A stretch of DNA of 60,274 nucleotides, taken from the IMG/VR virus record IMGVR_UViG_3300045988_172523; one strand, written 5' to 3'. This document shows, one piece after another, positions 13,167 through 29,400 of this stretch (positions are counted from its first letter, which is position 1; every line of letters begins with the position of its first letter). The position numbers and the translations under genes were made by a program. The DNA comes from a virus. The notes under the pieces were generated by a model. The model was not told where the DNA came from. It made no database searches and worked only from the letters and a program-made list of their open reading frames with translations.

Positions 13167-13844
13167 ATGGCATCGCTTACTATAGATCAAATAAAACTAT
13201 TCGAAATACTTCACAACTCTCGTATGGAGGATTTTAAAACTTTCAACAAGAGATCTTACCGTGGTGTATGGAGTAGTATCATAGATAAATACCCAGAATC
13301 TGCACATTTTGTATATGAGTTATTGCAGAATGCAGATGATGCGGAAGCAACGGAAGTATATATAATTTTAAGACAAGACCAAATGCTGTTCAAGCATAAT
13401 GGAAAGAAGCATTTCAATATTACATTAGAAGATGAAGAGCCTGTTGGCGACATTAACTCCATCACAGGTATCGGTGACTCTTCAAAAATAAACACGCAGA
13501 ATAAAATTGGTAAATTTGGTGTTGGATTTAAAGCTGTATTCCAATATACTGATACGCCTGAGATTTACGATGATATTTTCAAATTTAAGATTGAGAACTA
13601 CATAGTACCAACACTTCTGCCATACGACCATCCAGAACGGCAGGAAGGTGAGACCTTGTTTGTGTTTCCTTTTAAGAATGGTGAACAATCCTACCAGGAT
13701 ATTTTGAGACGATTGGAGAATCTTAAGAATCCGATTCTTTTCTTACATAATATTCATCGTATAGTTTGGAGAATTGACAGAATAGAAAATGGTACTGGTA
13801 AAGAAACCAAGTATTCAAAAGAAATAATTGACTCTGAGGTATAA
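13167..13844 (+). pseudogene. 5-prime fragment of a sacsin-like GHKL ATPase / SF1 helicase fusion gene, cut by prophage insertion
   Basis: YELLQNADDAEA and GKFGVGFKAVFQYTD motifs (sacsin/Hsp90-like GHKL). The ORF ends two codons into GC-richer phage DNA. The frame continues at 55859. Confidence 0.8.
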
Positions 13845-13920
13845 TCCGCAAATCCAAATTTCCGCAGAATCCGAAACGAAGCGTTCGATTTTCAGGAAAA
13901 GGGACAAAACGAAGCGTTCA
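13840..13920. repeat. Prophage end (late-gene side) with two ACGAAGCGTT transposase-binding-like motifs (13876..13885, 13909..13918) and TCCGCA(A/G)AATCC x2
   Basis: The same core is found inverted at the other end (55745..55752, 55836..55845). Confidence 0.6.
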
Positions 13921-13942
13921 AAAAAGGAAAGCGCGCAACACT

Positions 13943-13984
13943 CAAAAAGCCGAAACAAAAGTTTTGTAATGACCTCTGTTTCGG
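13943..13984 (-). terminator. Rho-independent terminator (GCCGAAACA ... TGTTTCGGC, T run on minus strand)
   Basis: 9-bp arms at 13948-13956 and 13976-13984, with AAAAA at 13943-13947 on the plus strand. Lies downstream of the methyltransferase gene. Confidence 0.6.
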
Positions 13985-14077
13985 CTTTATAATTTCATAA
14001 AAAATGGCTTTATAACGGCATTAAAATAAGGCTCAAAATTTGGCCTTCTGCTTGAAAAATTGTATCTTTGTTCAGTG

Positions 14078-14938
14078 CTAAGCAGCTGTTTTATGAACTA
14101 ATTTTTCCTGTTTTTTATACAGCATCATGTCTGTATATTCGGCAGAATAATTCATGTGGGCATTGAATTCCTTTTTTGTACAACCCTCAAAAGGATTGCC
14201 AATGGTTCTGTTTGCTCCAATCCATTCACACAGTTCAAGTATGGAGGATTTATTGGATGTGAAATAAACGAAGGAATGCTTTTCGAGTATCTTTAAAACA
14301 TCCAAATAATCAGACAAGCGCCAATACATATTGTACGTACCAACATCAGTGGAAAGATAAGGCGGATCAATTAAAAAGACGACTCCGGGAACATCCTTAT
14401 ATTGGTTGAATACTGCTTTGTAGTCGCATGATACAATTTCAAGCCCTTTTAAGTAGTCAGAAGACTCCGGATAACCGGTCTTGCGAATGTTGTTATAAAG
14501 GACTTCCTTGCGCATTTCGGCTACAGACAATTTATACTTCATGGAGAACATTAGTGAGGATGATAAGGTTATAAAATCCACGTACCCAACATTTAGTTCT
14601 TCTTCCTCGATACGTTTAAAAATGCGTTCTCTAAGTTCCCCTTTAATTGGTTTATGTTTGGGTATCGAATTACCCACCAGCTCCCTAATATCGGCAAGCA
14701 GTTTATTTGTCTGTGGGATATTTTTCAGTCTGAACCGGTAGTTGTCGAAATCATTGTAGACAACAGTAGCATCGGGCTTGCTTCTTTTGGCTATATGCGA
14801 AAGAAGTCCGGAACCGCCAAACAAGTCCACAAACACGGTATCTTCAGGGAACTGTTCCAAAACTTTAATAAACTCTTTAGCAAACATTCTTTTTTGGCCT
14901 ACAAATGGCAGTGGTGCAGATAAATTCATATTCTTCAT
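14078..14938 (-). CDS. N6-adenine DNA methyltransferase (Dam-like, DPPY class)
   Basis: PFVGQKR, FGGSGLL (AdoMet motif I) and LIDPPYL (motif IV). Confidence 0.8.
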   Translation of the reverse strand: MKNMNLSAPLPFVGQKRMFAKEFIKVLEQFPEDTVFVDLFGGSGLLSHIAKRSKPDATVVYNDFDNYRFRLKNIPQTNKLLADIRELVGNSIPKHKPIKGELRERIFKRIEEEELNVGYVDFITLSSSLMFSMKYKLSVAEMRKEVLYNNIRKTGYPESSDYLKGLEIVSCDYKAVFNQYKDVPGVVFLIDPPYLSTDVGTYNMYWRLSDYLDVLKILEKHSFVYFTSNKSSILELCEWIGANRTIGNPFEGCTKKEFNAHMNYSAEYTDMMLYKKQEKLVHKTAA

Positions 14939-15573
14939 ACGTTCAAGTCAAATTTAATGTTTTCAACTCCGGATAACAGTTCCAGAGTCCGGTCAATGTT
15001 ATTTTCATATATATGCACATTTCCAAGGTCAAGGGTTATGGACTTCAGGGGAAGCTCCACCTGCCTTGCCATCAGATAAAGATGATAAATATCAGCCGGA
15101 AGCCCAAGGTTCGCATCAGAACTACGCTGATATGCAGATAGCACCAGTTCTCCCTCATCAATTTGGAACTGCACAAGGCTCAGGCAGGGTGCCTGGTTGC
15201 TTTCCACCCCGGTTTCTCCAAGAAACAGGACATAATTCTTGCTGTTGCGCTTTTCCCGGTTAATCCTGGTTATGAGGGGTGGAAGCTTTTCAAAGTAAGT
15301 TGGATAGCTGTTTACAAGGGTATGGCCGCAATAATCCCACCAGGTAATCCCTGCCTCTTTGTATTTTTCCACATCCCGGACTCCTTGCATAAACAGTTTC
15401 AATTCCTCTTTCAGCTTTTTCCTGGCTATCCCGTGGCTTTCAAATATGTCAAGTAAATCAGCGGGGGTCAGCATGAGCCTTTCGTTTAATAGATACTTGA
15501 TACGGCCTTTCCTATTGGTCTGGATTTTGCCCGTTTGGAGTATCTTGTCTAATGTCTGGTAATACTTATTCAT
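14935..15573 (-). CDS. Thymidylate synthase-family protein (short; possible pyrimidine C5-modifying enzyme)
   Basis: APCLSLVQFQ (catalytic Pro-Cys), AYQRSSDANLGLPADI and LGNVHIYENN match the order of the ThyA core motifs. Start chosen at MNKYYQ (15573) rather than the 15639 in the ORF track. Confidence 0.6.
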   Translation of the reverse strand: MNKYYQTLDKILQTGKIQTNRKGRIKYLLNERLMLTPADLLDIFESHGIARKKLKEELKLFMQGVRDVEKYKEAGITWWDYCGHTLVNSYPTYFEKLPPLITRINREKRNSKNYVLFLGETGVESNQAPCLSLVQFQIDEGELVLSAYQRSSDANLGLPADIYHLYLMARQVELPLKSITLDLGNVHIYENNIDRTLELLSGVENIKFDLNV

Positions 15574-15639
15574 GAGCTTTATTTTTGGTTGTACAAAGGT
15601 AGCTCTACCGGACAACACAAGACATCCCCGGCACATCAA

Positions 15640-15888
15640 TCACACTGCACCGAGCGTGCAGTGCTTTCCAAACCGTTTGATAACATCATACACCTTACGT
15701 TCGCTTACCGAATATTTATTTGCCAAAAACGCCACTGCATAAGTGGTCTTTTCACCTTGTTTTTTCATGACCTCATACTCCGTATATAAGTCTATGAATC
15801 GAAGGTCATCCTGCTTGCCGCCCAAACTTATAAGCATTTCAAGCGGTTCTCTGTTAAATTTAAGTGCTTCAAACAATGTCATATCCAA
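15640..15888 (-). CDS. Small HTH DNA-binding protein
   Basis: C-terminal AFLANKYSVSERKVYDVIKRF resembles an HTH. The gene has its own upstream region after a terminator. Confidence 0.4.
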   Translation of the reverse strand: MDMTLFEALKFNREPLEMLISLGGKQDDLRFIDLYTEYEVMKKQGEKTTYAVAFLANKYSVSERKVYDVIKRFGKHCTLGAV

Positions 15889-15931
15889 TCATTTTTGTAC
15901 TTTTGCAATGCCAATCATTTATTTAATGCGT

Positions 15932-15993
15932 AAAAACGCCACGAGAGTGCGGCAGAGGGCATTGCCCCCGGTCGCGCACTCTCGTGGCGTTTT
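15932..15993 (-). terminator. Strong 15-bp-stem hairpin (CGCCACGAGAGTGCG ... CGCACTCTCGTGGCG) flanked by A5 and T4; bidirectional terminator
   Basis: Arms at 15937-15951 and 15975-15989. Lies after the tail/DGR operon on the minus strand. Confidence 0.7.
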
Positions 15994-16067
15994 GTGTTAA
16001 TAAATGATTGGCGTCTATATTAACAGGCCGGGGGCTTTTTTTATCCCTCCCCCGAAGGGATTGTCAA

Positions 16068-16553
16068 TCACTCAATCCGATATAATTCCAAATTGAACTT
16101 ATCCTTTTTTTCCCAGCCTTCAGCCAGAACCTTCTGGATATACCTTACCGCTTTCGTATAGAAGTCTTTCAACTCATCTAACCGACTAAAAGTATGGTAT
16201 TCGGGCTGTTCATCCGAACCAAACTTGAATGTGACCGGTAGGGTTTCTCCGCCCGTCTGAACAGCCAGATCGTATGCTGCCTTATAGTTGTACTGGTTCT
16301 CCGTGGAAAGCCATACAGGGGCACCATTATAGGCGAATCCGGATAGGATAGCTGCATCAGTCTGGCTGTTATACCAGGACATAACCAATGTGCGGATTTC
16401 CTCATCAGTAGGCTTATGCCCGAACTCCTCTTCCATGTAGGAGGCAGAGCCGTTCTCTTTTTCCTGCACATCCCATCGGATGCGCCATTTGTCTTTAACC
16501 GGGTTCGTGCATTCCATCAGCGAAACCCCGGAACTTCCTTCAACTCTTCTCAT
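16068..16553 (-). CDS. Hypothetical phage protein (DUF4376-like), coupled to the RT gene
   Basis: 4-nt overlap with the RT stop. Resemblance to the DUF4376 phage family is by eye only. Confidence 0.5.
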   Translation of the reverse strand: MRRVEGSSGVSLMECTNPVKDKWRIRWDVQEKENGSASYMEEEFGHKPTDEEIRTLVMSWYNSQTDAAILSGFAYNGAPVWLSTENQYNYKAAYDLAVQTGGETLPVTFKFGSDEQPEYHTFSRLDELKDFYTKAVRYIQKVLAEGWEKKDKFNLELYRIE

Positions 16554-17851
16554 GTAAACACGTATTTGGTTCTACCTTTGCCGAATGTCTCTGTCTTGAT
16601 GGTCGTTTCAAACGGGAAACCATCCGGCATTTCCTTTACTTGTGCGAGAATATTCTTCATTTCCTCGCTGTTGGTGAAGAACTTCTTTGCCTCGCCGTTC
16701 ACTTCGATGGCCACAATACAGCGGTCTTCTCCCTGCTCGGTTTTGATACCGGTCTCAAAGTCCTTCACTACAATGGGTAAGTTTACCAGTTCCCGGATGC
16801 TTACCACCACTCCGGGGAATCGCTTTTTACCGTCTTCCGGCTTGTAAGCGACATTCAAGTCTTTAAAACTTCTCATTTCTTTGCCTGTTAATTTTTTAAA
16901 CAACTTATTACAGTCGGCGTGCTTCGTCATGCCGTAGAAACTGGCAATCAGTTCCCGCCGTCTTTTTCTCGATTTTACCTCGTGCATCTTCCGGGCAAAC
17001 CTCTGTTTGATGCGTTTCCGCAATCTTACATAGTCGGGACGGATAACATAGCCAAGGAAATCAATGCCTTCTTCTACAGGGAACACCCGTTCATTCGGCT
17101 TTATTTCCAAGTCTATTTTTCCCATTTGCCCGTGAACAGCATCACGAATCTTCCACAATTCCGCTTTCGTTTTACCGAGTACCAGTCCGTCATCGCAATA
17201 GCGATAGTAATAACGAACCCCGTACTTATCCTTCAGATAGTGGTCTAAAAATACAGACAGAAGCAGATTTCCTGCCCCTTGTGAACTGCGCAGTCCGAAA
17301 CTGATACCTTCCGGCAGCAGCTTAACAAACCGCTCCAACAAGACCAACAGCCTTTTGTCCTTGAACACCCTCCGGAAGCACCATATAACAAAGTCCTGCC
17401 GCGCATTGTCGTAAAACCTCCGGATGTCAAATTTGTATGCGTAAAGCGTGCCTTCCGGATCTTTTTGCAAATCGGTACGTATGCAGTTCATCAGGTCATG
17501 AGTACCGCGCCTTTTGATGCTTGCACCGGTTGTCCGGATATAACGTTTTTGCAGGTGGCGGTCCACCACATTCATGATGGCAAACACAGCGATGCGGTCT
17601 TTCATGGACAGGATCTGCAAAATACGTTTTTTACCGTATTCTTCAATTTCCCTCTCATGGTAGCCGCCCAGCCGGAATGAGCCGTCCGCAATGGAAGCCG
17701 TCAGTTCGGCGATAATCTTCTCCCTATGGGCAAGCAGGAATCGTCCCTGCCTTGACCTCTTACGATCGGTTCCGCGAAGTACCGAATCGAATGCCTCCGA
17801 CATATTGGAGTATTCGATGATTTCCTCGATAATATATCCTTCCCTGCGCAT
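16550..17851 (-). CDS. DGR-type reverse transcriptase with ~110-aa C-terminal extension
   Basis: KKRILQILSMKDRIAVFAIMNVV (RT motifs 1-2), GLRSSQ (GxxxSQ, DGR hallmark) and YCDDGLVLG (YxDD). The TR lies immediately upstream. Confidence 0.85.
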   Translation of the reverse strand: MRREGYIIEEIIEYSNMSEAFDSVLRGTDRKRSRQGRFLLAHREKIIAELTASIADGSFRLGGYHEREIEEYGKKRILQILSMKDRIAVFAIMNVVDRHLQKRYIRTTGASIKRRGTHDLMNCIRTDLQKDPEGTLYAYKFDIRRFYDNARQDFVIWCFRRVFKDKRLLVLLERFVKLLPEGISFGLRSSQGAGNLLLSVFLDHYLKDKYGVRYYYRYCDDGLVLGKTKAELWKIRDAVHGQMGKIDLEIKPNERVFPVEEGIDFLGYVIRPDYVRLRKRIKQRFARKMHEVKSRKRRRELIASFYGMTKHADCNKLFKKLTGKEMRSFKDLNVAYKPEDGKKRFPGVVVSIRELVNLPIVVKDFETGIKTEQGEDRCIVAIEVNGEAKKFFTNSEEMKNILAQVKEMPDGFPFETTIKTETFGKGRTKYVFT

Positions 17852-18054
17852 AAGCTATTGGTTAATAAACATGGAAGATGAGGGCCTTCCTTTCCCCGGG
17901 TCTGACTTCTTCGAACTGATAACAGCCTACCAAACTCCACCCGACGCGTGATTTTTCAGCTTTCCACCTTTTCTGGTGCTGTTGCTGTGGCTTGCTCCCC
18001 TCGGCACCGCTTCGGGGACACGTCCCCGCTGCTGTACGCCGATTTGTTAGATTT

Positions 18055-18167
18055 CCAGACGCGAGCCGATATTCGCATTCGTATTCGAAGCATCGTTATT
18101 CGCATTCGCATTCGACACACCGCCATTCGCATTCGCATTGTTGTACCCGCGATAGACCACACGGACT
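18055..18167 (-). repeat. DGR template repeat (TR), 113 nt, AAT/AAC-codon rich on the minus strand
   Basis: 113-nt homolog of 18662..18774. Non-coding, between the target gene and the RT. Would read ...YNNANANGGVSNANANNDASNTNANIG... Confidence 0.75.
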
Positions 18168-18227
18168 ATCGGGAAGCTCTACCAATTACAAAGGTACTTA
18201 TTTCAAGGCAAAAGAAATCTATAATGC

Positions 18228-18461
18228 TCAGAAGAATAACCATAACAGAGCAGCAAAAGCACCGCCAAACACGGTTAATCCCCAATCTATCCAGTCCCAA
18301 CAGCCTCCATGCTGCTTGTCCTTCAGTTCCAAGCATGAAGCCGCAACAACGCTTGCATACAGTGATACGCCTGGATTTATTGCCAACAAACCTACAAGGA
18401 ATCCGCCTAACAGATGCTTGCATCGGTTACTCTCTCTCAAAAAATCAATAACTGTTCCCAT
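18228..18461 (-). CDS. Small predicted membrane protein in the position normally occupied by DGR Avd
   Basis: 77 aa with hydrophobic segments (LLGGFLVGLLAI, WGLTVFGGAFAALLWLFF). Lies between the VR and the TR. Confidence 0.45.
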   Translation of the reverse strand: MGTVIDFLRESNRCKHLLGGFLVGLLAINPGVSLYASVVAASCLELKDKQHGGCWDWIDWGLTVFGGAFAALLWLFF

Positions 18462-18593
18462 AATGATGATGTCTTTAATTCTTAAAAAATTCGGCCGGCT
18501 TCGCCGGTATTTGAATACCTTTTAAACGGAATTCGGAAACCATCCGAATCCCGTTCTTTCGTTTTAGTCGCTTCGCTCCACGCTTTTTTGCGC

Positions 18594-21500
18594 TTACGCC
18601 ACCTCGCGTATCGCCTTATACGCTGCCACGCTTTGCGCCCGGACGATTTTGCCGCGGAAGGCCAGACGAGAACCGATGTACGTGCTCGCATTCGAGGAAT
18701 CGTTGTTCGCATTCGACATCGAAACACCGCCATACGGGTTCGCGTTGTGGCTGCCACGATAGACCACACGGACTGTGGCGGTGCTTATCCAATACTTATC
18801 GGAATAGTAGGTAGAAGAAGATCCGTTCAGATTACCCACCGGAACCATGTCCATATACTTGCCGTGTGCCACGCCTGTTATCCATTGGTCACTGGCCGTT
18901 TTGCCCTGCACCCAGCGCACCGTGCCGTCCGGCATCCAGATGCGCCATTTGCCCACGTTGCCGCTGTTGTTCGGCAGATCCACGCCGTCCATCATGTCAT
19001 ACTTGTTGCCGTAGATGTCCTCATAGCCCAGGCAGCAGATATTGTTCACCTGCACCACGGTCGCCTGCCCGTATTCGTCCCGGCTCTTATACCAGGCAAA
19101 CTGGTGCACCAGGTCGTCAACCAGCGAATTCGTAATTTTGTTGTTGATGGCATACGCTTCATCGTAGCCTATGGTGTCTGTCATCCCATGCTCTGCCGTT
19201 CCGCCTGTTGTTCGGTTGTTGGTATGCTGTCCGGCACCGCACTGTTCCTGCATGTCCCTGCGCCCGTACCGTGCATAGCTCAGATTCGCGATGCGGCTGT
19301 GCATCAGCGAGTCTATCTGCTGCATGCCACGCTGCTGGCTGTAATAGTGGAAGTCCGTCCACGTCATGCTGGCAGTGGTCGAGCCGCCGGTTATGCAGGC
19401 GCGCAACTTGCTGCCCACTACAGAACTGCCCACAACGGCACACAGATGCTCCTCATTGGGCACCCAATCCGGTTCCATGTCCTCTATCTTGTCGCTGTTG
19501 CTCAGCACCACGCAGTCAAACTCTGCCGTGTTCAGAATGGAGAAATGCAGAGCCGTCGCACGCTCCGGAACGTCTGCTATCAGATACATGCCGGCTTCAA
19601 ATTTCAAGCCGATGGTCGGCACCACGATGCTCTTCAGGATGTTTCCTGCATCATCCACAAACACACTGCCGATAAGCCCCGTTCCTGGAACGCTCGGGAA
19701 GCGCACGCGCTTGTAGCCGGCTACGTCCACCTTACATACCGAATAGGTCTTGTCAGTCGTATAGGATTCCATCAACGTAGGCTTCCCGGTCATAATTTTG
19801 CGTTCACCCAGCCAGCCGCCCTGCGTTTCCTTAATGGTATCCAGTGTCAGCACTGTCGCCTCCGGAACAGGGGGCATTTCGTCCTCCGGATAACTGCTAT
19901 AGCAGGCGTACTTCTTGTTGTTCAGATAATCGTTGATACCCTTGCTCCAGTAGAACGGCTCATACATCATCCAGTCTCCCTCGCTGCCGTCCAGCTTCGC
20001 CACCGTGCAGTCGTTCATATCCTCCGCATCGGCATAGAAGTTCGAGCTTTCGTCATGCAGGGGGAAATAGGTCATCTCCCCGTCCGGGTTGTTCACTTCC
20101 ACCTGCTGCCCGGCCATCTCCACCTTCCGGCTCGTAGGCATCTTGGTCACCTTGGCCAATACGCGGTGGCGCTTGGACAGGATGGCATTCACATGCCCGC
20201 TCATTTTGTACGTATTGCCGAATTTGTACCCCGTCTTGTTGTCCAGGTTCGAAACATTGGCATCGTCGGCCACACTGTCGTCAAACTCAATCATCGTATA
20301 GGGCGGCTGCTTGATGGTCAGTTCCGGATAACGGGCGGCATACTTCTCCAGTTCCTCATCGGCCAGATACTTCGTCAGGGTCAGCTTACCGCGAAGGCCC
20401 GAGTGGCGGTCATCCACCGCACCCGTCTGCGTGTACGTTCCGTAGTCAAAATACTTCTTCAGCAGGCTTCCGTCGTCTTCCCGGTCTATCTCCAGCACAA
20501 AGCGCTCCAGCTTGCCGCTGCCGTTCAGTTTGGCCTGATGCAGGCGTTCCAGCATGGCAAATCCGTCGATGCCGGGGCAGTTGGTATAGCGGTAGCCCCG
20601 CACGTTGTTGATGCCTTCCAGCACCAGGCCGCTGTCCTGCAGCTTGGTCAGATACTCCAGGAACAGTTCCTCAATCGTGTCCGGCAGGCATAACTGCACA
20701 ACGGGCGCACCGGTGGCCAGCTTCACGCGGGTCAGCCCCGTACCTCTCACGTCCAGTTTCTTCAGTCGCCCCTGCCAGCTCAGGTCCAAGGTGGCCACGT
20801 TTCCGTTGTCCCCGTTCCGGGCCAGCAGGTTATTCCGCATGTTCACTTCTTCCAGCAGCAGCATCCCGTTGGTCGAAGCCATGAACGAGCCGTTCCGGTA
20901 ACCGCTGGCTTTCTCCACGCTCATGTCCAGTTTGACCAACGAGGTCAACAGACCGAAGTTGAAGCCGATGGCGAACGCATCCTCATGCCACACCAGTTCC
21001 TTGATTTTGGCCGCACCCACTATCTTCAGCGGGTCGTTCTCACCGAAGGCACGGGTCAGCTGCAGGGAGTGGAGCACGTCCGCATCCACCACACCGCTGT
21101 CGGCCTGTACGCCATTGCTGGTAGATAACTGCACACGGTACGGGATGGTCAGCCGGTACTGCATCGGTTTCAGCTTATAAGCCTTGTCCAGCGATGCCGT
21201 ACTCTGGTAGAACTGGGCACCCAGCGTAGATACATAGCCGTACTCCACCTGCTTCAGGTCGTACCGGCGCTGGATGAAGTAGTTCCGGTGCGCTTTCAGC
21301 GAACCCTTCAGACCGTAGATCTGCGGATAGGTCTGTTTCGCACCGTCCGCACCCACCGGCATTTCGTTCAGGAACGGATACACATACTTGAATATGCCGG
21401 ACTTGTTATACAGGCGCGAGCACCACTTCTTCATCTGCTCGGTATCGAAGTGGTCAATGGCTTTCTGGATACTGAAGGCACTCATGAAGCTGGTTCCGCC

Positions 21501-24500
21501 GTTCACGCCCTTGGTCATCACCTCCTCCAGCAGATTGCCCATGTTGCCCAGTATCAGGTTCCACAGCCAGCTGTTGTGCCCCTGCATCACATAGGCCCCG
21601 TCGCGCTTCGTCTGCCGGTTGTCGTCATACTTCCCGGTCAGGAACGACTTGTTGTCCGAACCCAGCTGGCAGTCACCATCGTAATAGGTTATCCACCACA
21701 TCACGCCGTCCCACGTCCGCACCAGCATGTTTTTTGCCAGCTGGTCCACGCCCAGGTTGAACTGTACATACAGGTAGTAGGCAGCCAGGTTGGGCAGGTT
21801 AAAATACTTCCCGGCTTCCTTCCTGAAGGTCGGGCTTGCCCACTTGGCGGTCGGGAACTTGTTTCCGTCATCCTCATAGTCCACCCCGTCAAATGTGTGC
21901 GACTCCTTGTTATAGGTCATGCCCTTGCCTGCAGGCGTTTCCTTCACACATCTGTAAAGGAAGCTCATCATGCGGTCCAGGGCCTTGTACATCTTGTCAT
22001 ACTTGTCACCGGTGCCCAGATGTTCCTTGATGTTCGGTTCTTCCTCGGCATCCCCACCGCCGTCGTTCCAGAACACGTCTTTCGGGTGGTTGAATTCGAA
22101 ACCGCCGTCAAAGTTGAAATCCATGAAGTCCGTATGGTCGGGCTCCGTGGACGGCAGCCAGCGGAACAGGCACAGGTCATTCGAGTTGTTCAGCGTCTCG
22201 ATGCAGATGGGCAGGTATTCCTTCGGCTGGTCGCCGTTCGCCTGCAGGTAGTTCAGGGTGTCGCCGGTTCCCCATTGCTCGCCGCCGATAGTCTTGTCCT
22301 GACCGAATATCGGGTAGCTGTCGCTCTTCTCGTTGTTCATGTTGTACTGGCCGTAATAGGTCAGGTCCTCATCCACGCTCTTGGCCACAAACAGGTCACA
22401 GGGCAAGCCGTCAATGGCCGAGCGTATATCTTCCTTGCACGTATCTGCATGGTCGGCGGCATACTGTTGGGCAGGGGTCAGGATTCCCATTTCCTTCATG
22501 CCGTCATGAATGAACTTCGCACCGCCCGTGTTGGTCGTCATGGAGGAGTCGGAAAAGTCACATTTCGCACAGGCAAGTTTCGCGCCCACCGAGTTGCCCC
22601 GCAACCGGAACAGGTTCTTCTTGCCCTCCGTAGCTGTCGGGTTGCTCTGCTGCCCGTTGCCGTCTATCTCGCCGTAGGTCATCCGTGCCGTATATCCGCT
22701 GGCTGTCTTCTGGAAGTAGAAGCGCAGGTTCTTGCGGGCATAGTTCACCGAACTGGTACCCTGGATGCGCAGATAGATGTCACGGGCTATCCAGTCCAGC
22801 GCCCGGTTCTCGCCGTTGTAGAATCTCACTTCCCGGCACAGCTTGTTGGCCTTCTTGTTGTTCAGCTGGGCCAGCGCATCCATCACGTTCAGCGTGTCGC
22901 TCTCGCTCGGCACCTCACTGCCCACGCTGCCCGTGCCTATCAGTACCAGGATCGAGTTCCGGCGTTTCTTCATCAGTCCCATCAGCTTCTCCATGCTCAC
23001 CGTGTCCCCCTCGTTCAGCACGCGGTTGTCCTCATCCAGCGAGCGCACGCCCGGTTCCCCGTCGGCATCTTCCAGGTGGTTGCGGTCCACGATATAGTTG
23101 TTCAGCACCTCGTCCGAGGTCAGCGCCTTGTTGTAGATGCGCACGCTCTTCACGTTCAGGTCCGCACCCGTTGACTTGAACTCCAGCTGGCTCTGGATGT
23201 TGAAGTTCACCTTGTCCAGCCACTTCGAGGCGGCACTTTCCTCACCGTTCACATAGAAGCCGATCAGCGTGCGCTGTTCGTTCGTTTGCACGTTCGGGTA
23301 GAACACATAGGTAATGCGGATGTTCGTGCCCGGCTGGAACTTCGTACCCACCGAGTCCTCATAGCGCAGCACCTGTCCGGCATCCATCGCCTCGGTCACC
23401 ACACCGGTCAGGAACTTGGCCTCTTCCGGGGTCACAATCAGCCCGTACCGGTTGCCGTTGTCCAGCTGCCCCAGGCAGGTGATCAGCTCGGCATTCGTGT
23501 CCGTCACGTTGGCCGTACTGTATTCTATCTCCAGCGTCATGCCCACGTCACGGATGGCAAATCCCTCGGGTTTGTCCGCCTCGTTGAAGGGACGATAACC
23601 GCCGTCGGCGGTCAGGGTCATGCCAGCACCGCCGGCCAGCAGCAGGCGGTCCTTGTGCCAGCCGCTACCTGCCCCGTATTCGTTCACGCTCCACAGCACG
23701 TCCCGGAACTCCATCCGCTTGTCACCGCTCACCCAGCTTGCCGGGTTGTTTTCCGTGTTGCTGCGCCCGAAGGCATCAAACGTACACACGGCATCCGGTG
23801 CCAGCGTAGCTTCAATGTCGGGGTGCGATGTCGTGTTCACCTTCACCTCAAGCACGGCATCACCGCACGACACGCGGTAGTCCAGCGGTTCCACATTTAC
23901 GTTCGTCCGCCCGTAGCTGCCGGTCTCGCCGCGCTGCAGCAGGTCTTCCTTCACCACACTGCCCTGATTCGTTACTTTCACGCGGGCCGTGTACGCATCG
24001 CGGTCATAGCCGGCATACGAAAAGCTCCATGCCGTAAATTGCTCTGCCTCCAGCACCGGGCGTTTCCAGTCGAGCTGGAATCCCGCAGCCCGGTGGCTGA
24101 ACATCATGCCGGCATAGGCCGTCACACCGCCGCCTGCCTTCAGTAGCGTAATGTAATGCACCCGGCTCACCACACCGGAGTTCTCATGCTGTGCGTAGGC
24201 TTCCACCACGTTCGTACCTTCCTGCATCTGCGTCAGGGGGATGGTCACGTTCTTCTGCTGCACCCCGCTGCCGGCAGAAAGACCGAGGGTAAAAGCCTGG
24301 CTGCCGTTCACACGGTAGTAGATGTTCTTCTCGCCGCTCGTACCCTTGGCCGTAAAGGGGATGTTCACGTCGTTCCGGTATCCGCCGTCGGCCAGCCCGT
24401 TGCCCACCGAGTAGGTCGTCTCCAGCGTCATGGCCACCATGGTCACCTTGGCCGTGGCTGTCTTAATTAGCGTGCCGCCCTGGTAGGTAGCCTGCGCCTC

Positions 24501-25151
24501 CACCTGCACGGTATAGGCGGTGGCATCCTTCAGGTAGGGCGATGCGTCAAAGGTGTAGCTCTGTCCGGCTGTCACACCCACAAATTCCGCATCCTGGAAC
24601 TCACTGATCACGGTCGAACCGCGTTTCACAATCACGCGGGCTTTCAGGTCGCTGTAGCCGTCCACCGTACCGCCACCGGCAGTACCCACGCCCACGGAGT
24701 ATTTCACCACAAAGCCGCTTCCCAGTGCCAGGTACTGCTGGGAGGGAAGTCCCGCGCCGCCGCTGTCTGTCAGGTCGATGTTCACCACCACCTTGTCGTC
24801 ATCCGTGTACTTGGAAAAGCGCACTTCCTTCGAGCTCTCGCCGCCCTGGTTATCCTTCTGCTTGACGGTCATCACATACTGGGTGCCGTCCTCACTGTCC
24901 TGCACATCCACGTCCGTCACCGTACCCACCATTGCATCAAACACCGTTCCGGATGTAGGGGGCTTCGTCTCGCCGCTCACCAGTTCCTCGGTTGGGGTAC
25001 GGTTTGACAGCTCTTTCTTCAGAAACGCTTCTACATCGTCCCCGGCATAGGCATGATAGGTGCCGTCCGGCTGTTTCTGGTTCCATGGTGTTTCAAGATT
25101 CATCGGATGTTCAGTCGCATTGATGATTCCGCTTATTTTCCTTTTTGCCAT
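18594..25151 (-). CDS. Giant tail fibre / receptor-binding protein (2185 aa), DGR target with C-terminal CLec/FGE-like VR
   Basis: The longest ORF in the window, located after the tail hub genes. Has a LamG-like segment (VRIYNKALTSDEVLNNY), an LRR-like segment (LKKLDVRGTGLTRVKL) and the VR in the last ~60 aa. Confidence 0.8.
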   Translation of the reverse strand: MAKRKISGIINATEHPMNLETPWNQKQPDGTYHAYAGDDVEAFLKKELSNRTPTEELVSGETKPPTSGTVFDAMVGTVTDVDVQDSEDGTQYVMTVKQKDNQGGESSKEVRFSKYTDDDKVVVNIDLTDSGGAGLPSQQYLALGSGFVVKYSVGVGTAGGGTVDGYSDLKARVIVKRGSTVISEFQDAEFVGVTAGQSYTFDASPYLKDATAYTVQVEAQATYQGGTLIKTATAKVTMVAMTLETTYSVGNGLADGGYRNDVNIPFTAKGTSGEKNIYYRVNGSQAFTLGLSAGSGVQQKNVTIPLTQMQEGTNVVEAYAQHENSGVVSRVHYITLLKAGGGVTAYAGMMFSHRAAGFQLDWKRPVLEAEQFTAWSFSYAGYDRDAYTARVKVTNQGSVVKEDLLQRGETGSYGRTNVNVEPLDYRVSCGDAVLEVKVNTTSHPDIEATLAPDAVCTFDAFGRSNTENNPASWVSGDKRMEFRDVLWSVNEYGAGSGWHKDRLLLAGGAGMTLTADGGYRPFNEADKPEGFAIRDVGMTLEIEYSTANVTDTNAELITCLGQLDNGNRYGLIVTPEEAKFLTGVVTEAMDAGQVLRYEDSVGTKFQPGTNIRITYVFYPNVQTNEQRTLIGFYVNGEESAASKWLDKVNFNIQSQLEFKSTGADLNVKSVRIYNKALTSDEVLNNYIVDRNHLEDADGEPGVRSLDEDNRVLNEGDTVSMEKLMGLMKKRRNSILVLIGTGSVGSEVPSESDTLNVMDALAQLNNKKANKLCREVRFYNGENRALDWIARDIYLRIQGTSSVNYARKNLRFYFQKTASGYTARMTYGEIDGNGQQSNPTATEGKKNLFRLRGNSVGAKLACAKCDFSDSSMTTNTGGAKFIHDGMKEMGILTPAQQYAADHADTCKEDIRSAIDGLPCDLFVAKSVDEDLTYYGQYNMNNEKSDSYPIFGQDKTIGGEQWGTGDTLNYLQANGDQPKEYLPICIETLNNSNDLCLFRWLPSTEPDHTDFMDFNFDGGFEFNHPKDVFWNDGGGDAEEEPNIKEHLGTGDKYDKMYKALDRMMSFLYRCVKETPAGKGMTYNKESHTFDGVDYEDDGNKFPTAKWASPTFRKEAGKYFNLPNLAAYYLYVQFNLGVDQLAKNMLVRTWDGVMWWITYYDGDCQLGSDNKSFLTGKYDDNRQTKRDGAYVMQGHNSWLWNLILGNMGNLLEEVMTKGVNGGTSFMSAFSIQKAIDHFDTEQMKKWCSRLYNKSGIFKYVYPFLNEMPVGADGAKQTYPQIYGLKGSLKAHRNYFIQRRYDLKQVEYGYVSTLGAQFYQSTASLDKAYKLKPMQYRLTIPYRVQLSTSNGVQADSGVVDADVLHSLQLTRAFGENDPLKIVGAAKIKELVWHEDAFAIGFNFGLLTSLVKLDMSVEKASGYRNGSFMASTNGMLLLEEVNMRNNLLARNGDNGNVATLDLSWQGRLKKLDVRGTGLTRVKLATGAPVVQLCLPDTIEELFLEYLTKLQDSGLVLEGINNVRGYRYTNCPGIDGFAMLERLHQAKLNGSGKLERFVLEIDREDDGSLLKKYFDYGTYTQTGAVDDRHSGLRGKLTLTKYLADEELEKYAARYPELTIKQPPYTMIEFDDSVADDANVSNLDNKTGYKFGNTYKMSGHVNAILSKRHRVLAKVTKMPTSRKVEMAGQQVEVNNPDGEMTYFPLHDESSNFYADAEDMNDCTVAKLDGSEGDWMMYEPFYWSKGINDYLNNKKYACYSSYPEDEMPPVPEATVLTLDTIKETQGGWLGERKIMTGKPTLMESYTTDKTYSVCKVDVAGYKRVRFPSVPGTGLIGSVFVDDAGNILKSIVVPTIGLKFEAGMYLIADVPERATALHFSILNTAEFDCVVLSNSDKIEDMEPDWVPNEEHLCAVVGSSVVGSKLRACITGGSTTASMTWTDFHYYSQQRGMQQIDSLMHSRIANLSYARYGRRDMQEQCGAGQHTNNRTTGGTAEHGMTDTIGYDEAYAINNKITNSLVDDLVHQFAWYKSRDEYGQATVVQVNNICCLGYEDIYGNKYDMMDGVDLPNNSGNVGKWRIWMPDGTVRWVQGKTASDQWITGVAHGKYMDMVPVGNLNGSSSTYYSDKYWISTATVRVVYRGSHNANPYGGVSMSNANNDSSNASTYIGSRLAFRGKIVRAQSVAAYKAIREVA
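18662..18774 (-). repeat. DGR variable repeat (VR) within the 3-prime end of the 2185-aa gene
   Basis: Encodes ...VRVVYRGSHNANPYGGVSMSNANNDSSNASTYIGSRL..., the same length as the TR and collinear with it. Confidence 0.75.
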
Positions 25152-25176
25152 AATACTGTCCTTTTATAATAATCAT

Positions 25177-25371
25177 TCATTTATCAGTTTTACTGCTACC
25201 GTTCCATGCGTCCGACCCGTTCCACGGCTCGTCGCCTTTCCAGTATCCAAGTCCGAAACAGCTGCTGATTGCGGACCATACCAGCCTTGCCCCGGCATAG
25301 ACAGCCGACAGGGCACGTTTTCCCACATACGCAGCCGTTATTTCCTTACCGCCTATGGTTATCATCGTCAC
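25177..25371 (-). CDS. Hypothetical small tail-region protein
   Basis: ORF coupled by a 4-nt overlap to the upstream gene. Confidence 0.4.
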   Translation of the reverse strand: MTMITIGGKEITAAYVGKRALSAVYAGARLVWSAISSCFGLGYWKGDEPWNGSDAWNGSSKTDK

Positions 25372-26093
25372 TCCTCCTCATAAATCAGATACAGCGTATT
25401 CGCATCCTTGTCCTGCAGTGCCTCATAGGCTTCCTCGCTCATCACCTCATGCCGGTAGGCCAAAAGTTTCAGAGCGCCTCCCGTGCCGGTATATATGGCA
25501 TCGCCCAGCAGGTAAAGCTTGTCCGGCAGGATGGCTGTCCGGTCCGCATTCATGAACATGCCGGCAGGGGGTACTCCCGCCACGTCCCAGTCCCCGTACA
25601 GGGTGGAGTCCATGTGGTAGGCAAATTTCCCGGCACCGGCCACATACACCACGTTGCCGCCCGGCTTGGTACTCTTGTCAGGCAAGACATTGCCTGTTTC
25701 CATCCATGAGGAAAAGCGTGCGGTAGCTCCGCCGACGGCTGCTGCCGTAGTCTGTTCCACCTTGGCAGCGGCATTTTCTGCCTTGGCTGCCGCTTCGTTG
25801 GCCTTGGTTGCGGCTTCCGTGGCGGCCTGGGTCTTTTCCTCCAGCCCGGCTACGGCTCCTTCCGCTTTCTTGGCGGCAGCCTCGGCTCGGGCGGCGGCAT
25901 CGCTCGCAGGCTTACCTATCAGTTCCAGGGGGACGTTCACCATTTTCCCGTCCTTCTCACCGGGCAGTGATTTCACACCGCTCAGCGAGGTGACGGTTTC
26001 CAGATCCTCCACACCGATAGAGGACTGGAGTACACGGTCCAGCACTTCCTGAACCATTTCTTCTTGCGTCATTTCTGCCATAAATCTATTCAT
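25368..26093 (-). CDS. Tail fibre-associated protein with Ala/Glu-rich coiled coil
   Basis: AAARAEAAAKKAEGAVAGLEEKTQAATEAATKANEAAAKAENAAAKVEQ segment. Synteny. Confidence 0.5.
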   Translation of the reverse strand: MNRFMAEMTQEEMVQEVLDRVLQSSIGVEDLETVTSLSGVKSLPGEKDGKMVNVPLELIGKPASDAAARAEAAAKKAEGAVAGLEEKTQAATEAATKANEAAAKAENAAAKVEQTTAAAVGGATARFSSWMETGNVLPDKSTKPGGNVVYVAGAGKFAYHMDSTLYGDWDVAGVPPAGMFMNADRTAILPDKLYLLGDAIYTGTGGALKLLAYRHEVMSEEAYEALQDKDANTLYLIYEEE

Positions 26094-26391
26094 CTATCAA
26101 TTTTACGATCTGTGAATAACATCCTGGGGTTAGCCCGATTACAGACTCTTTTATAAGTATAGCATCCTCAGCACTAATGGATAAATCCCCGTTTGCCTGT
26201 ATGAGACGCATGCACAATTCATACGAATGGATTTTACGGCTGCTATCCTTATTAGAATCACCGGATGATCGAGCACCTTCCCCATTAAAAAGGCATTGGG
26301 CTATAATATCTGTCATCAGCTGGACTTTTCCACCGACTATGAGGTCATTCCCTCTATAATCCTTAAACGTCTTGTTAAAATTCACCTTCAT
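26086..26391 (-). CDS. Hypothetical protein (AT-richer module)
   Basis: ORF of 101 aa that overlaps the next gene by 8 nt. Confidence 0.45.
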   Translation of the reverse strand: MKVNFNKTFKDYRGNDLIVGGKVQLMTDIIAQCLFNGEGARSSGDSNKDSSRKIHSYELCMRLIQANGDLSISAEDAILIKESVIGLTPGCYSQIVKLIDE

Positions 26392-26403
26392 AACTATTCA
26401 TTT

Positions 26404-29400
26404 TTATGACACGTTAATGATAATTCCATTCTGTACTTCTACTGTTTTACCCTTGAATCGCCCAGACCAACCATTTTGAGGAAGCATTTTATCAGCTTGT
26501 ACCACACCACCACTCACCAAAATATTCCCGGAATGCACCAACACATCGCCATCGAAATATCCTGCTGAAAATGTTAATGTGTCAGGATAAGTAGGCTTCT
26601 CACGACAACTTCCATAAATACCTGCTCCACCAAATGGAGCAATACCCATGATTGCATTACTAAAATTGTTTGCCTTAGCATAGATGCAGGTATCTCCGGT
26701 CCAATAGCCGTCATATCCCAATCGAATTTCAGCATCTCCATTACTCCAAAGCATGCAATTCCTTTCAACTGTAAATGTTCCTACCTTTCCTCCGTCCTCA
26801 ACAAATATTTTTCCATATACAGATGCATTCCGGCATTCCATGCTCCCGTCTTCCAGTATCTTGAAATTGCCGTTGGCTGTCACCAGTCCCTCCAGCTGTA
26901 TGTGGTCGGCTGTCAGCTTGATTTTGCTCACGGGCTTGCCGTATTCGTCTGTATCTTCCACACTGACCCCGATAAGGGCCACCTTTCCGCTGGCATCCTG
27001 GGCATACAGCCCGGCACCTTCCGGCTTGATCACCAGCCCGGTTTCTTTCAATGCAGCCCCGTCCTTGTCAAAAACCGCCGCTGAAATCTTTACCAGCCGG
27101 TCGCTCTGTTCGAACAGTGTACGGTACTTATAGGCCAGTGCGTCCGCCTTGTTGGTAGAGAATACCAGCAGCGAAATGTAAATCACGCCCGTAAACGACA
27201 GCTTGAAGTCTCCCGTACCGTTCCAAAGGCCGTCCAGCGTGAACATCTTCTCGCCGCCAACGGGCAGGTCTTCTTCATGGCCGAACAGGTTGAAGTTTTC
27301 AAACCCGGTCTTGTCAGCACCCACAAATTCGATTTTCAACCGTCCGGCCTTGATGACCCGGTAGCTGAAGGACAGATACACCACGCCGGGCACCCGTTCG
27401 CCCTGGCTGTTCGTCTGCCGGTACTCCGGTACCAGCCGGAAGTCCTCCAGTTTCTGCATGATATAGCTGTTCCGGATATAGGCATAAGGCACCTTGCCGT
27501 CGGTCCGTATCTCGGCATGCCCGTCCGGCTTCGTACCGTAAGGACCGCCGTTCGCCCAAATCCAGCGTCCGCCCAGGGTGAACAGCGTGGCCTTGCTGCC
27601 CGTCTTCCATTTGTCCATGCCGTCGGCAAAACTGCTGTTGTCCAGATAGCTCTGTTCTTCGCGTATTTCCTTGCGCAAGCTTTCCACGGCTGAATGGATT
27701 TTCCCCTCGGTTATCTCAAACCGCGTCAGGATGTCCTCGCCCGTCATCAACACGAACGTACCCTTCAGCCACACGTTGTCGGCATACAGGCCGTTTCCCT
27801 TCGGTTGGTTGTCTGCCGGGAAAGCGCTGCTCCTGATACCGTCCAGCTTGCCCAGCCGGCAGCGCAGGCAGCCGTTGAAGTTCTTGGCCTTCACCCCGTC
27901 CAGGATGTCGATACGGGGCTGCCCGTCCTCCGTGGCCGCAATGGATATAAGGTTCTGCCGGAGCGGGTTTTCCGTGTTGCCCATCAGCACGCACTCATCG
28001 CCTGCCTCCGGCTTCACCCCGCCAAACTCGCTCACCGGAACCATCACCCCGCCGGCTATCACCGAAGCCACCTCCACCCAGTATGCTTTTAGTTTCTTAC
28101 CACCCGTAACCGCACAGCGCATCAGGTCATGGGCCACAAAGCCTGATTCCTGCTCAAACACGATGCGGTAGTTGTCGCCCTGCTTCACCACGTCCTTGAT
28201 CTTGCCGTTGGCAGCGGACACCACCAGCTGGCCGCACACGCTGCGCACCTTCTCGATCAGCAGTTCCAGCGCCACCAAGCTTTGCCGGGCAGTCACTTTG
28301 TCCACCGTCAGGTTCGTCAGTCCCGTCAGCTGGTCAATCCACAGCTGCCAGCCCTCACCGGTCAGCCCGTCCACAAACTCCGTGCTGCGCAGCAGTTCGC
28401 GGATCACGGCAGTCAGATACTCGGCATTGCCCTCACCGTCCACGCTGCCGCAGGGCTTGCCGCCGGCAGCCTCGCCAAAGCTCACACCCTTCAGGAAGCG
28501 GATGGGCTCTTTGGCCGTGTCCGGCCGGTTCTTGCTCAGAAACTCTTTCTGGCTGCGCCGCGCGGAAAACAGGTTGTTGTCCGTGGGCAGCGTCTTGTCC
28601 CAGCTTCGTATGATGTCCGGAAGGGCAGCGCCTTCCGTCTTTGATTTCGTATAGCTTTTCAGCGCACCGATGCTGTCCGTCACCTTGTCGAACTTGCCCA
28701 CCTGCAGCGCATCACTTATCTCGATGTCCATCTGCCCGGGTTCGTTCACCTTGCGGCTGATTTTGGTGATACGGCTCTGACGGTAGCCTTTTTCCGGGAA
28801 ATACTTCCGGCTCTCCAGCTTCACCCTCCGGCCCACAAACAGGTCGATGCCGTGCTCCTCGATGTATACCGGGTCTGTCGGGGCTTTGTAGGCGGCAATG
28901 TCCAGCCAGTACTCCTTGTTGTACTCGTCCACCGCAACCGCAAACTCCTCTTCGGCCAGCCGGTAATACTCATCCGGCATCCGGATGTTCCACAGGATAT
29001 AGGTGTCGCCTGCTCGGGGCACCAGCTTGCCGCCCGGCAGCTGGGTGTCGTCATCATAGGGCCAGATGGTAATCAGTTCAAATTCCCTTGCCGCACTGTC
29101 GTAGTTCACCTTAAAGTAGTGGTCATCGCTTTCTCCCAGCCCGGCCAGGTCGCCCGTCTGGAACGACACACGTTTGGTCTCGTCGGCCAGCTCGTACAGG
29201 TTGGGGTCAAAGTTCAGTTCCCCGTCCCGGAAGTAATAGACGGTGAATTTGTTCCCTTCCTCGTCCGTCACCTCCTCGCTGCGTACCGAGCTCACCGTAC
29301 CCACCCGGTGGGGGTAGATACCGCTGAAGGCATCCTGTTCGTAATGGTCATAGATGCCGTATTCCTCCACACCCTGCTCGATGTACTTCCTGCCGCCGGG

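Follow-up and report, generated by a model that had tools for sequence, protein, structure and literature searches.

Related Systems and the Locus

The hallmark of diversity-generating retroelements (DGRs) is that a variable repeat (VR) differs from its template repeat (TR) at adenines of the template only. The closest described system to the one treated here is the DGR of Hankyphage p00 (Benler 2018, PMC6199706; PMC12135933; PMC12629997). The published genomes carry identical TRs and VRs altered at adenines alone, and the element is active, the more so on induction (PMC6199706, PMC12135933); a genus "Hankyvirus" of several species has been proposed for these phages (PMC12629997). The present work concerns a Hankyphage-like DGR in a viral stretch of DNA of 60,274 nt, the IMG/VR record IMGVR_UViG_3300045988_172523, referred to below as the window. 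Its VR, at the end of a tail-fibre gene, is an adenine-only derivative of the p00 TR, which is not the TR that stands next to it. All window features mentioned lie on the minus strand, and positions are those of the whole window.

The likeness to p00 extends over the entire gene order, from the methyltransferase (MTase), the thymidylate synthase (ThyA) and a small open reading frame (ORF) through the DUF4376 protein labelled "Avd", the reverse transcriptase (RT), the RT-3 RNA and the TR to a second small ORF and a tail fibre of ~2200 residues. Over the matched parts of a 4-kb query, the DNA of the window is 73-77% identical to that of p00, and the boundary sequences of the VR are the same. Thus, the window has the synteny of the Hankyphage or "Hankyvirus" group, but not its invariant p00 TR. 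The resident TR is instead another allele, rich in AAT and with a different 3' tail. In addition, TR and VR are 607 nt apart rather than ~370 nt, and the ORF between them has 77 codons' worth of protein in the window. A mismatch of lineage between TR and VR is not described in the published p00 genomes.

Two further systems are instructive for the use of a template in trans. In the Bordetella phage BPP-1, avd, TR and brt act in trans from a plasmid (PMC5758913), and the transplantation of the initiation of mutagenic homing (IMH) element together with its hairpin retargets the DGR to a heterologous gene; a 5' identity of at least 8 bp is enough for homing to be completed (Guo et al. 2011, PMC3240598). 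The BPP-1 target needs only 3' cis elements and a short 5' identity, which agrees with the VR-limited patch in the window and the shared blocks of 15-18 nt and 17 nt that bound it. The BPP-1 work was, however, engineered, whereas the donor in the present case would be a different natural phage, and neither an IMH/IMH* pair nor a GC-rich hairpin was found in the family to which the window belongs. In bacteria, trans use of the TR of another locus has been inferred in one genome, that of Thiohalocapsa PB-PSB1 (PMC10907252), and remote VRs are known in Treponema and others (PMC5758913). The reasoning there is that a VR fits a non-adjacent TR wherever the latter has a base other than adenine, and the same is seen in the window VR (0 mismatches at 81 sites). 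Unlike the incomplete or remote targets of a single chromosomal DGR described in those genomes, the target in the window adjoins its own intact DGR, its donor TR comes from a separate mobile phage lineage, and exchange has gone both ways. What the case adds is a variant form of a mechanism already described, rather than an element of a new kind; no report of the VR of one phage written from the TR of another was found in the literature.

Template Origin of the VR

The two 113-nt repeats were aligned computationally, without gaps, on the minus strand. They differ at 24 positions, of which 7 are TR adenines and 17 are G, C or T, exactly as had been counted by hand in an earlier note made from the letters of this DNA. 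The other particulars of that count also hold: the repeats agree throughout their first 18 nt (AGTCCGTGTGGTCTATCG) and again in their last 7 (CGTCTGG), the homology stops after CGTCTGG, where the TR goes on with AAATCT and the VR with CCTTCC, and every one of the synonymous third-position changes listed there was found (CGC/CGT, GGG/GGC, AAT/AAC, GTG/GTT, GGC/GGT and TCG/TCT). The 18-mer AGTCCGTGTGGTCTATCG occurs only twice in the window, against 0.04 occurrences expected by chance. Neither this anchor nor the TR pattern with every adenine free to vary (A to N, at most 3 mismatches) revealed a further TR or VR copy in the window, and the pair is the only one known there. In particular, the 60 kb contain no second VR matching the TR by that pattern; the earlier note had named the discovery of such a VR as fatal to its view of the pair.

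That view was that the TR and the VR are non-cognate, and it is correct: the VR fits the TR of p00 with 0 non-adenine mismatches and its own TR with 17. The p00 reference is the TR published for Hankyphage (in BK010646.1, PV107404.1 and many further records), which is present in 44 of the loci collected. Only six positions separate it from the window VR, all of them adenines (from p00 TR to VR: AAC>AGC, AAC>CAC, AAT>TAT, ACG>GCG, AAC>AGC and AAC>TAC), and the 81 non-adenine positions are without exception the same. Accordingly, the adenine-confined pattern typical of DGRs is lacking in the adjacent pair and appears only against the foreign TR.

The allelic comparison leads to the same template. 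At all 17 non-adenine mismatches between the VR and its neighbouring TR, the VR has the base of the p00 TR, which would have a probability of ~(1/3)^17 if the bases were random; at the sites where both templates carry differing non-adenine bases, the p00 allele is found in 15 of 15. The templates themselves are separated by 16 non-adenine and 2 adenine differences and by their 3' tails, that of p00 carrying GGTTCTCGTCTGAACAACAATCG. At the protein level, the scaffold of the VR is that of p00 (…ANP.GGVSMSNANNDSSN…) and not that encoded by the resident TR (…ANANGGVSNANANNDASN…). Fixed residues of the scaffold differ between the two (e.g., Pro, Met-Ser, Ser and Thr versus Ala, Asn-Ala, Ala and Ala), as do the variable codons. 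Since every non-adenine difference is a p00 allele, the VR can be regarded as the normal DGR product of a different template. It was last written from a p00-type Hankyphage template, most likely in trans. The exact 85-nt core of the window VR has 0 matches in IMG/VR and in the JGI metagenomes.

Extent of the Replaced Patch

The replaced patch is confined to the VR. This can be seen in the comparison with the locus L020 (IMGVR_UViG_3300029065_000014), which aligns to the window over 12.5 kb at 97.1% identity and combines the same TR as the window with a VR of the other, w-type lineage. Between 18030 and 19500, the two differ by one single-nucleotide polymorphism (18494), a 5-nt indel at ~18586 and 31 positions within 18669-18761, and by nothing else; no difference falls in the TR, in the small ORF or within 600 nt upstream of the VR.

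Other sibling pairs with opposite VR types are also nearly identical in their flanks. L092 agrees with L051, L025 and L090 at 598 of 600 positions upstream and at 249-250 of 250 downstream, L104 with L164 and L002 at 593 of 600 and 244 of 250, and L006 with L174 at 599 of 600 and 250 of 250. For L127 and L083, the upstream agreement is again 599 of 600, and the downstream side is unusable, the ungapped comparison being disrupted after the VR. Right outside the VR, on its 5' as on its 3' side, the p00 lineage shows a divergence of ~25%, which places the 5' exchange junction inside CCGTGTGGTCTATCG and the 3' junction inside CGTCTGGCCTTCCGCGG.

Recurrence Among Related Loci

The same exchange of VRs, in both directions, is found in many other contigs. 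Related loci were drawn from GenBank phages, IMG/VR, JGI/ENA metagenomes and GTDB genomes and gave 104 TR-VR pairs, in which the number of non-adenine mismatches between a VR and its own TR is distributed bimodally. There are 0-1 such mismatches in 75 pairs, 2-4 in 8, 5-9 in 2 and at least 10 in 19. All 19 pairs of the last class fit a foreign TR in the catalogue, 16 of them with 0 and 3 with 2-4 non-adenine mismatches. A p00-type VR accompanies a w-type or w-related TR in the window, L092, L130, L256, L267, L268, L276, L272, L275 and L281, and likewise, with the VR truncated, in L048, L262, L263 and L279. The reciprocal combination of a p00-type TR and a w-like VR occurs in L085, L104, L110, L120, L238, L201, L229, L242 and L088.

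A p00-type VR beside a w-type TR was found in at least 12 loci. The complete IMG/VR set comprises 74 stretches with the p00 tail; of the 36 p00-TR loci in it whose VR is visible, 8 are cross-typed, with a w-like VR. Cross-typing appears to be appreciable in rate, affecting ~22% of the loci with a p00 TR and several per cent of those with a w-type one. Across ~100 loci, the lineage of the TR and that of the tail-fibre flank are always coupled; the content of the VR alone is uncoupled from both.

The exchanges have been repeated. On a common backbone, and beside the same w-type TR, L256, L268 and L276 carry p00-type VRs that are 10-15 differences apart, from which it follows that the events were independent. 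Conversely, L085, L110 and L132 have a common p00-like backbone and VRs derived from at least two different w sub-alleles. The donor sub-alleles can be told apart: the VRs of L085, L088 and L120 fit a TR of the L004 type, that of L132 fits the L015 type, and that of L104 fits the L027/L018 type.

The two types of phage can share a genome as well as a sample. The chromosome of Bacteroides finegoldii JCM 13345 (AP027244.1) contains both a p00-type and a w-type prophage (L140 and L175, at 2.05 Mb and 4.77 Mb), and the mixed locus L092 comes from the same sample, 3300014550, as the canonical p00 phage L235.

The collection also contains loci of less regular composition. A common TR sub-allele (at least 21 contigs) is found in phages in which head and portal genes come next after RT, TR and small ORF, as in L004 (MT839296.1), L171 and L156. 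In L171 and L156 (Paraprevotella clara YIT 11840, NZ_JH376605.1), the matching VR is ~26 kb away on the same contig. L004 is the best TR match in GenBank and has no adjoining tail fibre, hence no VR to compare; several cross-typed VRs find their best donor in its sub-allele. The VRs of L113 and L151 (also L201 and L229) depart from the adjacent w-type TR by 6-7 non-adenine differences that they have in common, at positions 45, 75, 81, 87, 88 and 102. No collected TR accounts for these common differences, which points to a further, unsampled TR lineage as the donor.

In L034, L052, L077, L081, L129, L177 and L281, the TR has TR-type flanks and 8-17 adenine-to-N changes, as though the template had itself been a target for the homing of mutagenized complementary DNA (cDNA). 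In L281, a TR corrupted in this way is accompanied by a p00-type VR. L154 (Bacteroides metagenome-assembled genome, CANSEY010000007.1) joins a VR-type 5' flank (CTCCAG) to unmutated p00 TR content and a TR 3' tail. The arrangement has the appearance of a deletion in which VR and TR recombined and the tail fibre was cut short. L127 and L254 have a p00-type VR at the 3' end of the tail fibre and then unrelated AT-rich or non-phage DNA, with no small ORF, TR or RT after it. They are truncated elements, with a VR and no resident template, and L254 was rejected as a single-crossover hybrid on these grounds. L196 (IMGVR_UViG_3300008260_000375), another candidate for such a hybrid, was rejected as well, as it is essentially of the p00 lineage. 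It has the canonical p00 TR, and its VR, the sole multi-marker chimera found, has w-type alleles at the two markers nearest the 5' end and p00-type alleles at all 13 others. Its pattern fits a partial, 3'-anchored re-conversion of an earlier w-type VR, and successive events could give either polarity.

Target-Recognition Sequences

The candidate recognition element GCCTTCCGCGG is invariant across 68 distinct VR flank contexts. The invariance includes synonymous sites, while neighbouring codons vary, and the element does not occur in TR flanks. CCGTGTGGTCTATCG at the 5' end and CGTCTG-GCCTTCCGCGG at the 3' end are likely cis requirements of the Hankyphage-like family. An IMH/IMH* pair following the rules of BPP-1 was not found, the homology of TR and VR ending at CGTCTGG. 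The earlier note had remarked on this lack of IMH-like homology, which could be taken as a sign of decay. Such a reading fails, because canonical p00 lacks both the IMH and the hairpin too, and their absence is thus a trait of the whole family. The cross-typed loci, if written in trans, offer a natural experiment on target recognition in a family that does without either, and one that points to these two blocks.

Competing Explanations

Two of the possibilities raised in the earlier note, a DGR that had long been inactive while TR and VR drifted apart and an RT with an unusual, non-adenine mutational spectrum, would suit the 17 non-adenine mismatches in 113 nt if these were taken alone. Each of the mismatches is, however, a p00 allele, and the parts of the resident DGR are intact. 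The TR belongs to a second, widespread lineage (the w-type) and is base for base that of L011, L020, L043 and L089. L011 shows a TR only; the VRs of the other three have 10-13 adenine and 1-3 non-adenine changes relative to this template, which thus looks active elsewhere. The RT protein has no residue unique to the window and is 100% identical in L030, L036, L039, L046 and L060, of which L039 and L060 have the ends of w-type, adenine-varied VRs. RTs that are 99.1-99.3% identical to it stand beside VRs altered at as many as 18 adenines and at 0 non-adenine sites. As the flanks of the VR are identical to those of its sibling, there has also been no time for drift, and both decay and an odd RT can be taken as refuted. 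Very improbable, too, is an assembly chimera, in which reads of a co-occurring p00 Hankyphage would have been threaded into the VR of a w-type contig. The window does match metagenome assemblies and is probably itself of metagenomic origin, VRs are hypervariable, and many contigs end in one. Against this, positions 15594-28151 (12,558 nt) are 100% identical in two differently built ENA assemblies (ERZ27256439 k119_85109 and ERZ28657729 XIEH16-1_SAMEA3449229 scaffold_546, human gut). The junction blocks measure only 15-17 nt, less than the k-mers of assemblers, so the junction k-mers must be present in the reads. Moreover, the architecture recurs in dozens of independent assemblies, and a p00-type VR in a non-p00 flank is also found in the GenBank entry MT836131.1 (L006), where the TR is not visible.

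The earlier note had suggested that the TR-RT module was swapped in, which in present terms means that a p00-type TR-RT was replaced by a w-type one through a junction between VR and TR, with the VR as a leftover. Modules are indeed shuffled in this group: the block from MTase and ThyA to RT and TR moves relative to the tail-fibre modules, as the similarity over 13840-18213 that ends just 5' of the TR indicates, and the 5' half of the RT is mosaic with respect to L020. The swap is possible but disfavoured, and on balance improbable, since the ancestor that it requires, in which a p00 TR would go with this lineage of tail fibre and hp41, was not found: the w-lineage flank occurs in 0 of the 36 p00-TR loci in IMG/VR. 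Where a p00-type VR sits in the w-lineage flank of a contig whose TR is visible, that TR is never the canonical p00 one and mostly w-type. The hp41 region and the TR of the window are those of L020, whose VR is w-type, and the differing VRs of L256, L268 and L276 on the same backbone and TR mean that p00-type writing was repeated there; for reciprocal cases like L104, one swap would have to be followed by a second. The main rival, less remote though still unlikely, is gene conversion, that is, short-patch homologous recombination with the diversified VR of a co-infecting p00 phage, with crossovers in the conserved end blocks and without reverse transcription. Its product, a p00-type adenine-varied VR within foreign flanks, would be indistinguishable from the one observed. 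Mosaicism is pronounced in this group, whose breakpoints lie close to the TR and within the RT, some TR alleles are themselves mosaics of w and p markers, and co-residence is documented. However, both exchanges would have to fall inside identity islands of 15-17 nt in surroundings that are only ~75% identical. The flanks are of the recipient type right up to the VR in every sibling comparison, and the longer conserved islands 190-250 nt upstream were never used. No clean single-crossover hybrid accompanies the ~19 or more VR-limited patches, the p00 phage that shares the sample of L092 carries a different VR, and no identical copy of the window VR was found in the two collections searched for its core.

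The explanation favoured here, with a probability of roughly 0.6, is that a co-resident p00-type DGR rewrote the window VR by mutagenic retrohoming in trans. A p00-type Hankyphage would have been in the same cell, either as a co-resident prophage or as a co-infecting phage, and would have expressed its own TR RNA, RT and accessory protein. The adenine-mutagenized p00 cDNA would then have integrated into the VR of the window phage, replacing only the ~90 nt between the shared end blocks, and the resident DGR would not have rewritten the VR since. Such writing should be workable because both lineages share the putative cis elements, namely 15-18 nt at the 5' end of the VR (CCGTGTGGTCTATCG) and CGTCTG with GCCTTCCGCGG at the 3' end. 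Trans-retrohoming predicts exactly the VR-limited boundaries that are seen, and it accords with the published experiments on BPP-1 and on the activity of Hankyphage DGRs. We infer from the sequences a cDNA route rather than DNA recombination, and a donor in the same cell.

Several points weigh against trans-retrohoming. Since cDNA transfer and gene conversion give the same product, the case for cDNA is built on the boundaries of the patch and the short identity blocks of 15-17 nt. The 60-kb window holds no p00-type TR and no second RT, and the donor is hypothetical for the genome of the window. The one complete genome with both types, that of B. finegoldii JCM 13345, has both VRs cognate. The same VR is present in the two ENA assemblies, and the resident DGR has thus not visibly re-homed. 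DNA folding of 120 nt revealed no BPP-1-like hairpin 3' of the VR in the window or in p00 (z-scores of +1.46 and +0.85 versus shuffled sequences). Finally, mixed loci were partly targeted in the sampling, and only the 8 of 36 come from an unbiased complete set.

Implications

The conservation of the recognition sequences across lineages would allow members of the group to overwrite the VRs of one another. It is tentatively proposed, at somewhat less than even odds, that the Hankyphage-like phages of gut Bacteroidales form a template-sharing network in which co-resident DGRs overwrite each other's receptor-binding VR. A phage could then gain another diversification scaffold via cDNA, its genome not being recombined, and elements with a corrupted TR (L281) or without TR and RT (L127) may rely on helper DGRs. 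If writing in trans is the correct reading, host-range evolution by DGRs in one of the most widespread groups of gut phages would reach beyond the phage's own cassette, with co-resident relatives rewriting the tips of the tail fibres. There would also be a new route of horizontal exchange for ~100 nt, with RNA and cDNA as intermediates and with flanks unscarred by recombination. For genome annotation, tools that require adenine-biased TR-VR pairs to find DGRs will drop such loci or mislabel them as degenerate, which here concerns 8 of the 36 p00-type loci.

Organization of the Locus

The region from 14 to 25 kb of the window is the right-end module of a Hankyphage-like prophage (Table 1); host flanks take up 1-13 kb and 54-60 kb. 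To judge from its parts, the window carries a complete and apparently functional Hankyphage-like DGR, comprising the accessory ORF, RT, RT-3 RNA, TR, small ORF and tail fibre with VR.

Table 1. Features of the DGR locus and its surroundings in the window.
Feature	Position	Strand	Description	Matches
DNA methyltransferase	14078-14938	-		
Thymidylate synthase	14935-15639	-		
Small ORF	15640-15888	-		
Accessory ORF	16068-16553	-	161 aa; overlaps the RT stop	Pfam DUF4376 3.8e-6; phrog_19239 3e-74
DGR reverse transcriptase	16550-17851	-	433 aa; intact	Pfam RVT_1 4e-11; phrog_1423 1e-103
RT-3 RNA	17897-18044	-	Between TR and RT	Rfam RF03068, full-length match, 150.3 bits, E = 8.7e-38
Template repeat (TR)	18055-18167	-	w-type, AAT-rich allele; non-coding; 27 adenines in the 109-nt core	
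Small ORF	18228-18461	-	77 aa; between TR and tail-fibre gene, Hankyphage "hp41" position	phrog_38535 1.6e-25; synteny
AAAGCG-repeat element	18567-18593	-	Conserved; just past the tail-fibre stop	
Tail-fibre target gene	18594-25151	-	2185 aa; intact ORF	Last 400 aa: phrog_14959 3e-154
Candidate IMH-like target-recognition element	18652-18662	-	GCCTTCCGCGG; adjoins the TR-homologous stretch of the VR on its 3' side	
Variable repeat (VR)	18662-18774	-	113 nt; ~residues 2127-2163 of the 2185-aa tail fibre; p00-type content	

The accessory ORF is placed as in jmh42_hp and p00 and is 100% identical in four other contigs. It matches DUF4376 and not the Avd family of Pfam, the label "Avd" resting only on annotation transfer in Hankyphage records. 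The RT is homologous to the experimentally active RT of the Hankyphage DGR, at ~76% DNA identity (PMC12135933). The RT-3 RNA adjoins the TR in p00 (L002), L020 and L004 as well and is presumably the structured spacer portion of the DGR RNA in the Hankyphage-like family. The tail-fibre gene shows 73-77% DNA identity to that of Hankyphage, and the last 400 residues of its product gave no match in Pfam.

The window is peculiar in lacking 5 nt (GCGCC) at ~18586, within the AAAGCG-repeat element, where all other w-lineage loci read GCGCAAAGCGCCAAAGCGTGGAGCGAAGCGAC. On the other side of the TR, the region 17250-18029 is mosaic: the window and L020 are ~15% diverged over the 5' half of the RT and the RT-3 RNA, and identical from the TR on. 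Over 13840-18213, many contigs match the window at 98-99.7% identity; immediately 5' of the TR, their similarity at the megablast level is lost, and this suggests a hotspot of recombination between TR and small ORF (~18213).

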